A stretch of 64,000 nucleotides of DNA from Eledone cirrhosa (Eukaryota), in assembly GCA_964016885.1 (NCBI GenBank), contig OZ024741.1:146940001-147004000 (forward strand), in the 5' to 3' direction. Both the position numbers and the translations under genes were made by a program. The notes beneath the pieces were generated by a model, which was not told where the DNA came from, searched no databases, and saw only the letters and a list, made by a program, of their open reading frames with translations. This document shows, one piece after another, positions 4,685-36,475 of the stretch (positions within the stretch are counted from its first letter, which is position 1; the number at the start of each line of letters is the position of its first letter).

Positions 4685-4870
4685 ACAAAGAAAGTGTGGT
4701 AAGGAACCAGGTGGACCATAACGCACCAGAGTACTCAATACTTAGGGTAGTAGAGTGAGTAATAAGAAAAGAGTCAGGACCCCAATGGCTGTGCTCTGGC
4801 TGTTTCAACAGCTAGATCTAGCTGTCAAAATTGCTGGAGCTCAGCCTTCGGGGTCCTTACTATTTTCCTA
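4685..4870. repeat. TA-embedded repeat ending in a ~100-nt imperfect fold-back
   Basis: First ~80 bp shared with 12201-12290. Perfect core palindrome ACAGCTAGATCTAGCTGT (4808-4825), extended by GGCTG/CAGCC and AGGACCC/GGGTCCT. Flanked by (TA)n. Confidence 0.75.
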
Positions 4871-4888
4871 TATATATATATATATAAA

Positions 4889-5207
4889 TAGGGAGACACA
4901 AAGCTGGCTTTGTTTACAAATAGCTAGCGAATTTGAAAATTATGTAGTAACATGTGTTTACACCGTATTTGATTAAATAGAATTAGTCTGTTAGTTGGGA
5001 TGGTAACACAATAGTCCAGAAAACCAAAGATGTAGGTTCATGTCCCATGTACGTCAATACTCATCCTTTTTACCATTAAGAGGGGTTTTTTTAAATCCCA
5101 ACTAACACACTAATTCTATTTAATCAAATGCAGCAGAAGCACATGTTACTACAAAATTTTCAAATTTGCTAGACGTTTGTAAACAAAGCCTGCTTTGTGT
5201 CTCCCTA
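4889..5207. mobile_element. Fold-back/MITE-like element with ~113-bp inverted arms around a partial tRNA-like sequence
   Basis: Arms 4889-5001 and 5095-5207 (TAGGGAGACACAAAGC.../...GCTTTGTGTCTCCCTA). (TA)n on both sides. The spacer matches 6651-6745. Confidence 0.85.
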
Positions 5208-5241
5208 TATATATATATATATATATATATATATATATATA

Positions 5242-6577
5242 TCGATCTTGAGAAAGCCTTTGACAGAGTTCCACGTGCTGTAATCTGGTGGGCTCTTAGA
5301 AAACTAGGAGTAGATGAATGGCTTGTGAAAGCTGTACAAGCCATGTATAGGGGAGCAGTCAGCAAAGTTAGGATTAGCAATGAGTATAGCGAGGAATTTA
5401 GCGTACAGGTTGGAGTCCACCAGGGCTCTGTTCTTAGACCCCTCCTGTTCATCATAGTCCTGCAGGCAATAACGGAGGAGTTTAAGACCGGATGCCCATG
5501 GGAACTCCTGTATGCTGAAAACCTTGCACTTATAGCTGAATCTATGGTAGAACTAGAGAATAAATTCCAAACTTGGAAGCAGGACTAGAAAGAAAGGGTC
5601 TCAAAGTCAACATGACAAAGACTAAGGTCCTTGTAAGTAGACAAGAAGACAGAACCCAGATCCCCCAATCTCTGGGAGGGCTCTGTAGAAACAGTAGACA
5701 TTTTTCTGCTACCTAGGTGACCGAATTAGCAGCGGAGGTGGGTGTTCAGAAAGTACAATAACTAGGGTAAGAACGGGATGGAAGAAGTTTAGGGAACTAC
5801 TACCACTGCTAGCTGCAAAAGGCTTCTCCCTCAAAATGAAAGGCAGACTGTATGATGCGTGTATCCGAACAGCGATGTTGCATGGCAGTGAGACCTGGGC
5901 GCTGAAGGTGGAAGACTTACGTAGATTAGAGAGAAATGAAGCCTGCATGCTCCGATGGATGTGTAATAGTAATATACGCGAACGACAAAGCATAAATGAA
6001 TTGAGAGAAAGACTGAGCATAAGAGGAAACAAATGCTGTGTGCAGGAGAGGCGGTTGCGTTGGTATGGACATGTGATGCGTATGAAGGATGACAGCTGCA
6101 TAAAAAGGTGCAGAGCACTAGAAGTCGATGGAAACCGCGGAGTGGGGAGACCCAAGATAACTTGGGATGAGGTGATAAAAGCCGACCATACCCAATTACA
6201 CCTCTCAAAGGCGATGACACACGACCGTGACCTCTGGCGTTACGCAGTAATACAGAGTACCCGACCTCCCATGGGTACAAGCTGAAGCATATACACAATA
6301 TGCCCCACCCACCCACCGCAAGGTTGTCGTGGAGGTGCCACGGCAAAAAAGCACCCAGCCCACACTGTAAAGTGGACGTGTAGGCGCCACGAAAAAGCAC
6401 CCAGCACTCACTGTAAATGAGGTTGGTGTTAGGAAGGGCATCCAGCTGTAGAAATCAAGCCAAATCAGTTCCTGTATGAGCAAGGCATGGCCAGCCGACC
6501 AGACACTGCCCACAACAGGACAACTGGTCTAACCCATGCTAGCGTGGAAGAACGGACGTAAAACGGTGATGTTGATA
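5242..6577 (+). mobile_element. 5'-truncated RTE LINE, family A (RT C-half and 3' UTR)
   Basis: DLEKAFDRVP, VGVHQGSVL, YAEN (decayed YADD), MLHGSETW, RLRWYGHV. 3' UTR has AAAAGCACCCAGC repeats and a GAT tail. Confidence 0.95.
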
Positions 6578-6636
6578 TATATATATATACCTGATATGGT
6601 TATATAGCTTATAATTAAATGGAAGGAAGCATGCGT

Positions 6637-6707
6637 GGCCTGTTGGTGCAATGGTAACACATTGGTCCAGCAAACCAAAGATAAGGGTTTGTGTCCCATG
6701 TACGTCA
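6637..6707 (+). tRNA. tRNA-like pseudogene inside a TA-flanked repeat (loop CCAGCAA, anticodon position AGC)
   Basis: 71 nt with cloverleaf spacing. D arm GTG/CAC with TGGTGCAATGG A box; anticodon stem TTGGT/ACCAA; T arm GGG-TTTGTGT-CCC; imperfect acceptor stem; T-run at 6718-6723. C instead of U33. Confidence 0.6.
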
Positions 6708-6817
6708 ATACTCATCCTTTTTTCAATTCAGAGGGTTTTTTTAAATCCCAACTAACACACTAATTCTATTTAGTCAAATACGGCATTAGCACATGTTACT
6801 ACCTAATATATATATAT

Positions 6818-7640
6818 GGCCATGTTCGATATGTAGGAAAGGAACTGGCATAAATTCCATAAAATGTACGTAATGCAGATCTTGGGTACACAAGAGATGT
6901 AGTGGGATAGCAGGCAAACTAACAGGTAGATGTACAGGGACAGTTGGCAGTAGTAATTGCAGTGATAGACACATTTTTCCAATGCAGGTGTGTTCTATAG
7001 AAGTGGTTGATAGCTTCTGATACCTAGGTGATCAGATTAGCATGGGAGGGGGTGTTCTGAGGCCATAGTGTCTAGAATAAGGGTGGGTTGGAAGAAGTTT
7101 AGGGAGCTGCTTCCTTTGTTGACAAACAAGGGTTTCTCCCTGCGTATGAAAGGATGGTTATATGATGCCTGTATGAGATGCACGATGATGCATGGTAGTG
7201 AGACATGGGCAGCAACTGCAGAGGATATGCTACGGCTGGAGAGAAATGAAGCAAGCATGCTCCGTTGGATGTGCAATGTCAATGTGCGTGAATGACCAAG
7301 CATAGACGAGTTGAGAAAGAAACTGGGTATAAGAGGGATAAGTTGTGGTATGCAGGAGAGAAGTCTGAGATGGTATGGACATGTGATGTTCATGGAGGAT
7401 GACCGCTGGGTAAAGAAGTGCCAAGAAATACCAGTGGAGGGAAGACGCAGTAGAAGTAGACCATGAAAAACATGGGCGCAGGTGGTGAGAGTAGACCTCA
7501 GATCACTGAAACTCACCGAGATGACGAAGGACCGTGACAAATGGAGAGATGTTGTGCTGAATAGGACCCATCCAACCCTTGCAAGCAGGGAAAAGCAGAT
7601 GTAAAATGATGATGACGATGATGATGATGATGATGATGAT
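6818..7640 (+). mobile_element. 5'-truncated RTE LINE, family B
   Basis: WPCSICRKGTGINSIKC, GWKKFRELLPLL, HGSETW. Short 3' UTR and (GAT)n tail. Begins in (TA)n. Confidence 0.9.
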
Positions 7641-8023
7641 ATATATAATATAGGAATGGCTTTCCTGATTTCTCCCGAATGAAACAGTTCCAGTCCTGTA
7701 GAAGCCATTTCTATATTAAATATTTATTCTTTGCTATGTATTGAGCACCTTACTTACTGTGGTTACTCCTGAGTGAACCCGGGAAAGATATTTTACATTT
7801 ATTAATATTATTGATATTAATTATACACCAGAAAATATTGTTGAGGGCTTCTATCTATTATAAAATAACTCATTGCTTATATATATATATAAATTTGTCA
7901 GTAATATACTTTACATCTCAATAAATAAGATTGCTTTGAATCTAATTTAGAGAAGCTTATAAATATAAATATAGAAATATCTGTGGTTAGTCTGCACCTT
8001 ATTTAAGATATATATATATATAT

Positions 8024-34905: not shown

Positions 34906-34927
34906 CATGTGTATACATACACGCATA

Positions 34928-35260
34928 TTAGTGGTTAGAGCATTGGCCTTGCAATCGAAAGGTTGTGAGTTCAATTCTCAGACCGGGTGATGTGTTGTTT
35001 CCTTTAGCAAGACACTTTATTTCACATTGCTCCAGTTTACTCAGCTGTAGAAATGAGATAGGGACTAGGGTCCATATCATTCCACTGCAAAGTGGTCGTG
35101 GAGGTGCCACGACAAAAAAGCACCCAGCACTCACTGTAAATGAGGTTGGTGTTAGGAAGGGCATCCAGCTGTAGAAATCAAGCCAGAATCTGTTCCCGTC
35201 CCATCCTTGCAAGCAGGGAAAAGTGGACGTAAAAGGAAATGATGATCAAATGATGATGAT
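34928..35260 (+). mobile_element. CORE-like SINE with RTE-derived 3' tail
   Basis: TAGTGGTTAGAGC A box, GAGTTCAATTC B box. Tail AAAAGCACCCAGCACTCACTGTAAATGAGGTTGGTGTTAGGAAGGGCATCCAGC matches the RTE 3' UTR at 6393-6447; (GAT)n end. Confidence 0.9.
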
Positions 35261-35267
35261 ATATATA

Positions 35268-35650
35268 TCATCATCATCATTTCACATCCGCTTTTTCCAT
35301 GCTTGCAAGGGTGGGACAGCAACTGATTCTGGCTTCATTTCTACATCTGGATACCCTTCCTAACACCAACCTCATTTACATTGAGTGCTGGGTGCTTTTT
35401 TTCCATGGCGCCTACACATCCAGTTTACAGTGTGGGCTGGGTGCTTTTTTGCCGTGACACCTCCACGACCACTTTGCAGTGGAATGATAGGGACCCCAGT
35501 CCCTATCATCTCATTTCTACAGCTTAGTAAACTGTAGCAATGTGAAATAAAGTGTCTTGCTCAAGGAAACAACACATCACCCGGTCTGAGAATTGCGCTC
35601 ACAACATTTTGATTGCAAGGCCAATGCTCTAACCATTAAGCCATGTACCT
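35268..35650 (-). mobile_element. Same SINE family in the opposite orientation (tail-to-tail)
   Basis: Reverse complement of 34928-35260 with one extra tail repeat unit. Confidence 0.9.
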
Positions 35651-35848
35651 CCATAATATATATATATATATATATATATATATATATATATATTGTTATA
35701 CTTTGGGAGGGTCATGTTGCCAATAAGAAACACACGCTCCAGTTGCTTTCACTTCAATTTAATTTATTATATATTTATAAATTTACAAATTTATAAATTT
35801 CTGGTTGGTTGGTTGGTTCCACAACCAGATGGTTGTTTATATATATAT

Positions 35849-35893
35849 AGTCATAGTTCTTTCGTCACACACTCTGTGACCTCTTCAGTGACT
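35849..35893 (-). ncRNA. Minimal type I hammerhead ribozyme (left arm)
   Basis: Exact reverse complement of 36026-36070. Confidence 0.8.
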
Positions 35894-36025
35894 GGGGATT
35901 TCTTTCTTCGTTTCTGTGCCTTTCCTTTCTTCTATCCTACGCCATTTTGTTTTGTTTGTGACACACAAACAAAATGGCGTAGGATAGAAGAAAGGAAAGG
36001 CACAGAAACGAAGAAAGAAATCCCC

Positions 36026-36070
36026 AGTCACTGAAGAGGTCACAGAGTGTGTGACGAAAGAACTATGACT
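36026..36070 (+). ncRNA. Minimal type I hammerhead ribozyme (right arm)
   Basis: AGUCA-CUGAAGA-GGUCACA(GAGUG)UGUGAC-GAAA-GAAC-UA-UGACU: intact core, 5-bp stem I, 6-bp stem II with one extra G, minimal stem III. Confidence 0.8.
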
Positions 36071-36475
36071 ATATATATATAAACAACTATCTGGTTGTGG
36101 AACCAACCAACCAACCAGAAATTTATAAATTTGTAAATTTATAAATATATAATAAATTAAATTGAAGTGAAAGCAACTGGTGCGTGTGTTTCTTATTGGC
36201 AACATGACCCTCCCAAAGTATAACAATATCGGTTTCAACACACGATTTCAGATAAAGAATCTTGCTAAACAAATTCAGAAACGAAATATATATATATATA
36301 TATATATATATATATATATATATGTATGTATGTATGTATGAATATATATATGTATATATGTATGTATGTATGTATGTATGTGTATATATATATATATGTA
36401 TGTATGTATGTGTATATATATATATATGTATGTATGTATGTATGTATGTATGTATGTATGTATGTATGTATGTAT

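Follow-up and report, generated by a model that had tools for sequence, protein, structure and literature searches.

Fold-back insertions in TA microsatellites of Eledone cirrhosa: probable Penelope-type retro-insertions of one truncated element and several short non-coding families

A 64-kb stretch of the genome of Eledone cirrhosa (assembly GCA_964016885.1, contig OZ024741.1, positions 146,940,001-147,004,000, forward strand), called the window below and numbered from its first letter, contains seven fold-back structures set in or beside (TA)n microsatellites. Very probably these structures are retro-insertions of the type made by Penelope-like elements (PLEs). The fuller reading preferred here, to which a probability of about 0.6 is attached, is that the seven represent (TA)n insertions of one truncated PLE, family E, and of short non-coding families, A, B1, B2, C, D and F, and that they would have formed by priming from both ends of the cut target. 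The positions of the copies and of their parts are collected in Table 1.

A preliminary description of the window had listed seven inverted structures associated with TA, and BLAST comparison of the window with itself, together with a reading of the sequence, finds all of them in place. The largest, at 35690-36229, has 263-nt arms that are 99% complementary. Inverted repeats are also confirmed at 4869-5227, 19456-19592 (68-nt arms, 96%), 4762-4871 (56-nt arms, 79%) and 8024/8279 (33-nt arms, 97%), and 12318-12355 is a 38-nt hairpin; the stem at 7647-7717, as read from the sequence, comprises just 11 bp. The genome measures 3.0 Gb, and the window is repeat-rich, with 84 TA tracts of at least 8 nt covering 2.2% of it. 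The self-comparison gives seven inverted-repeat clusters that do not themselves consist of TA; the outer edge lies at most 17 nt from a TA tract in five of them, and a sixth reaches a TA tract, 117 nt off, through the remainder of its element. Genome-wide, a (TA)3 hexamer occurs within 15 nt of the 3' end in 8/8 copies of A, 15/16 of B, 15/16 of E and 11/18 of C, against a background of 4.2% of random 15-nt windows. The association with TA, claimed earlier from the window alone, is thus far above chance. All 12 fetched loci of A lie within TA-rich microsatellite on both sides, as judged by eye, and (TA)n is present on both sides of the E copy at 19456-19678. The unpaired one-sided tails are also present, measuring 58 nt in A, 77 in B, 47 in C, 73 in D and 86 in E. 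Two of them had been described as ending in ACGAAAT. The heptamer does stand at 8325-8331 and 36281-36287, but the plus-strand D copy continues to ~8384 before (TA)n, and therefore ACGAAAT is not its end there; some other D copies stop at or near it.

The counts given below come from searches of each family in its own genome, with the best ~40 candidates scored per search, and copy counts are therefore lower bounds. First-look candidates are counts before scoring, and fetched loci carry labels from L001 onwards.

The tie to an autonomous element comes from family E, which has 965 first-look candidates at 99% identity. A single 3' end is found in 16/16 loci of E, the 5' ends are spread over ~470 nt with a hot spot at R366-373, and 10 of the 16 copies extend upstream of the apparent unit. 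Among the longer copies, locus L050 aligns over 1.6 kb with L027 and enters an open reading frame (ORF). The full-length element, PLE-E, consists of a 713-amino-acid (aa) frame followed by a 1-kb 3' untranslated region (UTR) that ends in family E, and a search with its protein gives 124 scored copies, 93-100% identical, several of which keep an intact 713-aa frame. Since the longer E copies enter this frame, family E is, judging by the aligned copies, the heavily 5'-truncated 3' UTR end of an abundant autonomous short PLE. The 713-aa product matches a Pfam-positive ORF with reverse transcriptase (RT) and GIY-YIG domains from the same genome over the RT core (BLASTP E = 6e-6). In the ESM Atlas, the closest clusters with a name carry GIY-YIG, RVT_1 and HTH_animal, which is taken as a lead only, and a GIY-YIG motif was read by eye only. 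The GIY-YIG domain (PF01541) has 10596 first-look candidates in the genome, and 150/150 scored above the cut-off. The suspected link to a Penelope-like RT/GIY-YIG enzyme is supported by these candidates and by the entry of family E into a PLE ORF. The ORF and domain check of the 64-kb window finds no Penelope-like ORF there; its long ORFs are proteins of long interspersed nuclear elements (LINEs) with APE-type endonuclease, RT and PHD domains. A second abundant PLE type, recognisable by Pfam, has RVT_1 as well as a C-terminal GIY-YIG with a CX4CxxC linker and intact ORFs of at most 1096 aa, and occurs within (TA)n/(CA)n microsatellite (L023 1775-5062, L024 4809-7622, L025, L026 and L027 4927-6738).

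The layout of the copies agrees with TA-directed insertion by reverse transcription, which the preliminary description had proposed. A fixed 3' end is combined with variable 5' truncation in C, D, E and PLE-E, and partial tandems and/or inverted 5'-truncated copies beside the 5' end occur in D, PLE-E and C; A, B1 and B2 have fixed 5' ends in the sampled copies. Several unrelated short families do share one insertion mode, as had also been claimed. In 17/40 scored copies of C an adjacent inverted match is present; for the control, which used an endonuclease/RT LINE of the window by its 3' end, the count is 0/40 scored copies. Terminal inverted repeats at both true ends are not the layout, which includes one-sided tails, monomers, truncated arms and tandems.

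This layout bears on two origins that involve no reverse transcription. Long inverted repeats bordered by TA would suit DNA transposons, either fold-back elements or miniature inverted-repeat transposable elements with a TA duplication, or transposons of the plant type that target TA microsatellites, and DNA transposons with such targets reportedly exist (PMC4486113, PMC5907723). However, owing to the one-sided tail the two element ends do not form inverted repeats with one another, some copies are monomers or half elements whose ends are exact, others are 5'-truncated or form partial tandems, E leads into an RT-type ORF, and D carries a PLE-type hammerhead. A DNA transposon is accordingly a very improbable source. 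Palindromes formed at the level of DNA are a further candidate. (TA)n is able to form hairpins, and these would cause fold-back priming or template switching in replication or repair, inverting the neighbouring DNA; a nested palindrome at 34928-35639, centred on (TA)4 and built of two different repeats in mirror image, speaks for such events. In the seven structures, however, (TA)n is found beyond the arms and the element 5' end forms the centre, the family-specific layout recurs at dozens of unlinked loci, and the LINE control is without inverted partners, so that there is hardly any probability left for this origin.

The arms and tails of the retro-insertions follow a regular pattern, in which one arm ends in the tail and the tail-less arm stops at a fixed internal site, X, 47-86 nt upstream of the tail end. 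Among 30 PLE-E loci, exactly one arm is tailed in 8/8 head-to-head pairs; in 7/8 an inverted tail-less arm with X as its outer end lies beside a tailed direct copy, and at L116 the arrangement is reversed, a 33-nt inverted tail piece adjoining a 3186-nt tail-less full-length copy. For PLE-E, X and the tail end are about equally frequent as copy ends, and in tandem copies the 86-nt tail sits between X and the 5' UTR of the next copy. A pairs have exactly one tailed arm in 9/9 cases. A second search of family C, made with a body-only query and without bias towards tailed copies, yielded 30 loci. Of these, 18 have their 3' end at the tail end, 7 at X (C216-225) and 5 between the two. The ten classifiable head-to-head pairs in this sample of C comprise eight mixed, one tail/tail, one ambiguous and no none/none. 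Where the inverted arms end on the inside is variable, and in C, E and PLE-E this point usually does not coincide with the 5' end of the accompanying direct copy; both arms of A and B reach the unit 5' end and form near-perfect palindromes. The PLE-E copy at L115 has an L1-like inversion with a 15-nt overlap.

The best 40 scored copies of A in the genome are 94-100% identical. Nine of the 12 fetched loci are fold-backs with the 58-nt tail, and the remaining three, with the same 3' end, are monomers beginning at the inversion centre. The centre junctions vary by at most 14 nt among A copies, and 7 variants agree between the two arms where 0.06 would be expected. For B1, with 3406 first-look candidates, the layout is identical in 40/40 scored copies. 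The majority-rule state of 16 B copies is complementary at 55/55 arm positions, individual copies at 42-53, and 12 arm-concordant variants are observed against 1.6 expected. The concordant arm variants, the shifting junctions and the A monomers show that each insertion produces its arms afresh. B2 has 7233 first-look candidates; all 39 other scored copies share its start point, and typical arms measure 58 nt. B1, B2 and F have a homologous tail module with the common core GTATTGAG.AC.

The following course of events is proposed for these insertions. A TA-cutting Penelope-like RT/endonuclease would open the (TA)n target, and both cut ends would prime DNA copies of the element RNA: one target strand would prime at the RNA 3' end and give the tailed copy, and the other at the fixed internal site X and give the tail-less copy. 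Each complementary DNA (cDNA) would extend a variable distance towards the 5' end, and the two would be joined head-to-head by template jumping; where both had reached the 5' end, a perfect fold-back would result, as in A and B. For A, B/F, C and D, PLE enzymes acting in trans would do the copying. Such trans-mobilisation of A, B, C and D is probable from their shared layout, and for the two start sites the odds are about even. It is conceivable, and is put forward tentatively, that a TA-specific PLE RT/endonuclease acts in this animal as a general copying engine for unrelated short RNAs by obligatory two-ended priming, with cDNA synthesis begun on a shared RNA by either 3' end of the self-complementary target, these RNAs including a tRNA-headed element resembling a short interspersed nuclear element (SINE) and ribozyme-free hairpin RNAs.

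Snap-back at hairpins had been put forward earlier as the mechanism common to all the structures. A single cDNA, primed at the RNA 3' end, would fold at the 5' end or at a hairpin and copy itself into the inverted arm. The symmetric fold-backs of A (9/9) and B, which meet at the unit 5' end, are what it would give, and the same private variants stand on both arms, as self-copying predicts. Snap-back cannot yield L116 or the D copy of the window, however, where the long copy is tail-less and the tailed piece measures 33-106 nt. It leaves the usual difference between inner arm ends and direct-copy 5' ends in C, E and PLE-E without a cause, it requires an additional rule that halts self-copying at X, and no hairpin is seen at the inversion centres. 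Arms are often asymmetric, as with the 3.2-kb tail-less copy beside the 33-nt inverted tail piece of L116, and snap-back does not stand as the general mechanism; as the account of these structures it is unlikely. The shared private arm variants, the one-tailed pairs and the swappable long and short arms favour two priming events over self-copying snap-back.

Several points weigh against two-ended priming of PLE-type templates. Samples of the best 40 lean towards complete copies, and the queries for A, B, D, E and the first C search contained the tail, so that these samples favour tailed copies. The arm-concordant variants could also come from gene conversion between arms or from few master copies. 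Exceptions to the one-tail pattern are the C loci L058 and L062/L179 (one place) and the B locus L101. X shows just 2-3 nt of TA-like microhomology, and a duplicated end motif at X is seen for B only; considered as a second start signal, this motif ranks best for B alone, stands near the top for D and E and is absent from A and C, and it was rejected. Structured tails were rejected as well, with folding z-scores of -0.8 to +0.3 and no stable fold. The proposed RNA templates of A, B, C, D and PLE-E are known from genomic copies alone. As for the enzyme, Pfam detects neither RT nor GIY-YIG in the 713-aa ORF, and in a sequence search of the PDB no solved structure matches it. In 35 PLE loci (L013-L027, L074-L093) and their 3' flanks, BLAST finds no autonomous element that shares a 3' end with A, B/F, C or D.

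The last of these points concerns the nature of the short families. BLAST of the family units against the 35 PLE loci matched separate nearby insertions alone, and the 3' UTRs of these loci, read by eye, have no 3' end in common with A, B/F, C or D. The expected connection of the families with autonomous PLE ends thus exists for E, which leads to PLE-E, but no partner was found for A, B/F, C and D in the 35 loci. A, B1, B2, C and D are read as discrete short non-coding units: the first four because no sampled copy runs upstream of the unit 5' end, and D because it closes on itself as a tandem unit. Alternatively, there would be no non-autonomous guild, and A, B, C and D, like E, would stem from autonomous PLEs with strong stops, as their 5'-truncated ends. 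E resembled a 155-nt unit until longer copies were compared, it too has a hot spot of 5' ends, and the searches score the best 40 candidates only. Upstream extension, however, is seen in 0/12 loci of A, 0/16 of B1, 0/39 of B2 and 0/46 of C, versus 10/16 for E; C starts at C1-3 beside the flank in 17/30 loci and holds a tRNA-like module; and D repeats as a closed 333-nt tandem unit. On this evidence it is doubtful that the short families are mere truncated ends.

Family C, on the reading as a discrete unit, measures 267 nt and has more than 1600 first-look candidates; it begins with a leader of 48 nt, followed by the tRNA-like module and the body, and closes with a tail of 47 nt. The Rfam tRNA model scores above its gathering score in the solo copy of the window (Table 1) and in 10 C copies from 15 loci (30-49 bits), and ARAGORN finds no tRNA gene in the window. 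The 3' end of C reads ...GTGTCTCCC and then (TA)n, with no A-rich tail; BLAST of C against the window matches C copies alone and no LINE 3' end. An RNA 5' end at the tRNA start was hinted at by the biased sample (9/16 at C48-68); the body-only sample disagrees (17/30 at C1-3), and this candidate was rejected. The C fold-back of the window has (TA)n on both sides and a tail on both arms, which is the minority type. Locus L155 (~950-1300; G000:C12:34715109-34715456) contains eight head-to-tail repeats of a 43-47 nt piece of C (C174-220), which ends at X.

Family D is a 333-nt unit with a hammerhead ribozyme motif and has 2457 first-look candidates. Its 14 loci, two of which are mirror duplicates, include singles, partial tandems, inverted 5'-truncated copies by the 5' end and head-to-head pairs. 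The apparent 33-nt terminal inverted repeat of the window arises where a full tail-less minus-strand copy overlaps a truncated tailed plus-strand copy. The hammerhead has a palindromic UGCA loop on helix III and a predicted cut after UA, its motif is intact in 8 further D copies, and the minimum-energy fold recovers helices I and II.

The fold-backs had been described as often centred on hammerhead-like parts, and a central role for hammerheads is not borne out. The strict scan for type I hammerheads demands both cores (CUGANGA and GAAA), the two helices I and II, and a UH site that is in register with helix I. It detects a single motif in the window, that of D, where 0.04 are expected per shuffled window. 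One strict motif among seven structures is thus present, and it lies 110 nt away from the inversion junction (8278/8279), at no inversion centre. The window scan finds no strict motif in B, C, E or F, and none recurs in the 30 PLE-E loci. The look-alike in A is degenerate: an additional base separates its core from helix II, and its helix III loop is non-palindromic; it lies 66-110 nt from the centre and fails both the strict scan and Rfam (35955-36290, E<=10). A search with the Rfam hammerhead models, at E<=1 across the whole window and at E<=10 across 8000-8400 and 35955-36290, gives no match; these models apparently do not cover the minimal PLE-type ribozyme, whose helix III has 1 bp. The microRNA matches of the Rfam window scan are long hairpins below gathering scores. 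In the fetched loci, the strict scan gives 23 motifs in 218 kb and 7 in 151 kb. At least five further strict minimal type I hammerhead types, in each of which helix III has 1 bp and the 6-nt loop is largely palindromic, occur at loci that include L004 2853-2907, L009 2117-2181, L041 1826-1896, L054 567-640 and L125 520-583; none is in PLE-E.

Table 1. Positions in the window of the inserted copies, their parts and the adjoining TA tracts
Feature	Position	Strand	Description
Family A	35694-36287	+	inverted tail-less copy 35694-35959; direct copy 35960-36229; 58-nt tail 36230-36287
(TA)n around the A copy	35656-35693 and 36288-36323
Degenerate hammerhead look-alike in A	36026-36070	+	mirror copy 35849-35893 on the minus strand
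Family B1	4685-4871	-	110-nt palindrome 4762-4871 and 77-nt one-sided tail 4685-4761
B1 flanks	4666-4684 and 4869-4890		3' end abuts (AT)n 4666-4684; 5' side abuts (TA)n 4869-4890
Family B2	12203-12355	-	tail 12203-12279; body 12280-12336; inverted arm of just 19 nt, 12337-12355
B2 3' flank	12086-12201		(TA)58 tract
Family C fold-back (L058)	4891-5205	+	inverted copy C152-267 (4891-5006) joined to direct copy C53-267 (4989-5205)
Family C solo copy (L173)	6590-6808	+	complete 5' end; stops at internal site X (C219); tail-less
Solo C flanks	6575-6589 and after 6808		(AT)n 6575-6589; TA after 6808
tRNA-like module in solo C copy	6637-6707	+	Rfam tRNA model 34.2 bits (gathering score 29)
Family D	8024-8384	-	minus-strand full unit without tail 8024-8279 (U1-247), head-to-head with plus-strand copy 8278-8384
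D plus-strand copy	8278-8384	+	5'-truncated, U214 through tail
D flanks	8008-8023 and after 8384		(TA)n
Minimal type I hammerhead in D	8123-8168	-	helix I 7 bp, CUGACGA, helix II 4 bp, GAAA, 1-bp helix III
Family E	19456-19678	+	inverted tail-less arm 19456-19523; direct copy 19524-19678; 86-nt tail 19593-19678
Family F	7647-7793	+	short stem-loop remnant 7647-7717 and tail ~7718-7793, homologous to the B1/B2 tail

Further observations concern the surroundings of these copies. Words of family A occur in six sequencing runs of unstated kind, and no RNA run is listed among those that contain them. Sampled words of family A (35960-36287) are found at 0.58-0.65 in sequencing runs labelled as two other organisms, and hence near-identical A copies exist outside the species label of this genome. 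Copies of A, B, E and F occur within 1-3 kb of unrelated PLE copies in many of the 35 loci fetched for another purpose. The LINE copies with APE endonuclease, RT and PHD finger lie at 5240-6575, 7000-7640, 9058-12039 and 24447-28708, and their 3' (GAT)n tails often abut TA tracts. A 690-bp TA-rich array at 23377-24069 has a 21-nt superperiod (ATATATATATATATATATACA) and borders on LINE copies and (ATC)n. The nested palindrome at 34928-35639 is 712 bp long, with a tRNA-like SINE as its outer repeat and LINE 3' ends with (GAT)n/(ATC)n as its inner one; the short TA run lies at its centre (~35257-35266), a geometry opposite to that of the seven fold-backs, and 17 nt separate its end from the (TA)19 tract at 35656. 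Inverted-repeat pairs at 14036-15436 and 45370-45729 (72-83% complementary) do not adjoin TA tracts, and the latter involves tRNA-like SINE fragments. TA microsatellites seem to act as shared landing pads that accumulate nested insertions.

Much of this architecture has been described for PLEs. According to the quoted passages of Craig et al. (2021, PMC8557442), EN+ PLEs show heavy 5' truncation, partial tandems (pseudo-long terminal repeats, pseudo-LTRs), an inverted 5'-truncated copy by the 5' end and a tail of 30-40 bp at one end; (TA)n is preferred by Naiad, Hydra and Neptune PLEs, non-autonomous relatives are described for Chlamys, and canonical hammerheads are universal in Hydra. The same passages treat the tandem and inverted structures and the tail as features of a still undefined transposition cycle. 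Compared with that account, the (TA)n target, the 5' truncation, the partial tandems, the inverted truncated copy and the one-ended tail are shared here. The tails differ, measuring 47-86 nt versus the quoted 30-40 bp, most structures of the window are short units without an ORF, and, unlike in Hydra as quoted, the strict scan finds no recurring hammerhead in the 30 PLE-E loci.

Short repeats bearing hammerheads, the retrozymes, have also been linked to PLEs (Cervera and de la Pena 2020, PMC7229834; preprint 10.64898/2026.07.22.740005), and in the portions of these sources cited here the metazoan non-LTR retrozymes are tandem units of 170-400 nt with a type I hammerhead, expressed as circular RNA. 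Family D resembles them as a 333-nt non-coding unit with a type I hammerhead and partial tandems in a PLE-rich genome. Unlike the retrozymes so described, D carries a ribozyme of the minimal PLE type (1-bp helix III, palindromic loop) rather than a canonical one with loop-loop contacts, and it occurs mostly as single, inverted or dimeric (TA)n insertions rather than in long arrays; A, B, C, E and F are without a strict hammerhead.

Two systems outside the PLEs offer further comparison. tRNA-derived SINEs resemble family C in its tRNA-like module, its length and its number of first-look candidates; C differs in having no LINE-like or A-rich 3' tail, in its PLE-type layout in (TA)n, and in units that begin 48 nt upstream of the tRNA-like part. 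In the twin priming of L1, reportedly described by Ostertag and Kazazian in 2001, two cDNAs from both target strands are said to meet head-to-head, with the 5' part inverted. Head-to-head cDNAs are likewise proposed here, and L115 has the exact L1-type layout with its 15-nt overlap. Unlike in L1, the second start here mostly falls at a fixed position close upstream of the tail, and most of each arm overlaps the other, instead of the two being adjacent parts of one RNA.

The architecture has been described (PMC8557442) and the link between retrozymes and PLEs published (PMC7229834), and therefore the finding is of a known kind: the general pattern is already known for PLEs, going by the portions of these papers quoted above, and the several short families are further instances of it. 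The undescribed system suggested earlier for the window does not stand beside the account of PMC8557442. In the open-access literature, no description was found of a SINE paired with a PLE, of a tRNA-headed hammerhead-less unit with PLE-type insertion, or of a count-based case for two fixed PLE start sites.

The mechanism of PLE transposition is still unsettled, as PMC8557442 states in the passages quoted, and the young, abundant families of this genome let PLE insertion products be counted, which makes them unusually clean material on integration. If true, two-ended priming would explain the inverted pseudo-LTRs of PLEs together with their one-sided tail. Several unrelated short units with a common layout suggest that PLEs, like LINEs, support dependent elements, and the reading of the PLE enzyme as a copying engine would, if true, define a PLE-dependent class of SINEs. 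Dependent elements of PLEs would, if real, bear on the annotation of invertebrate repeats and on the growth of TA microsatellite regions.

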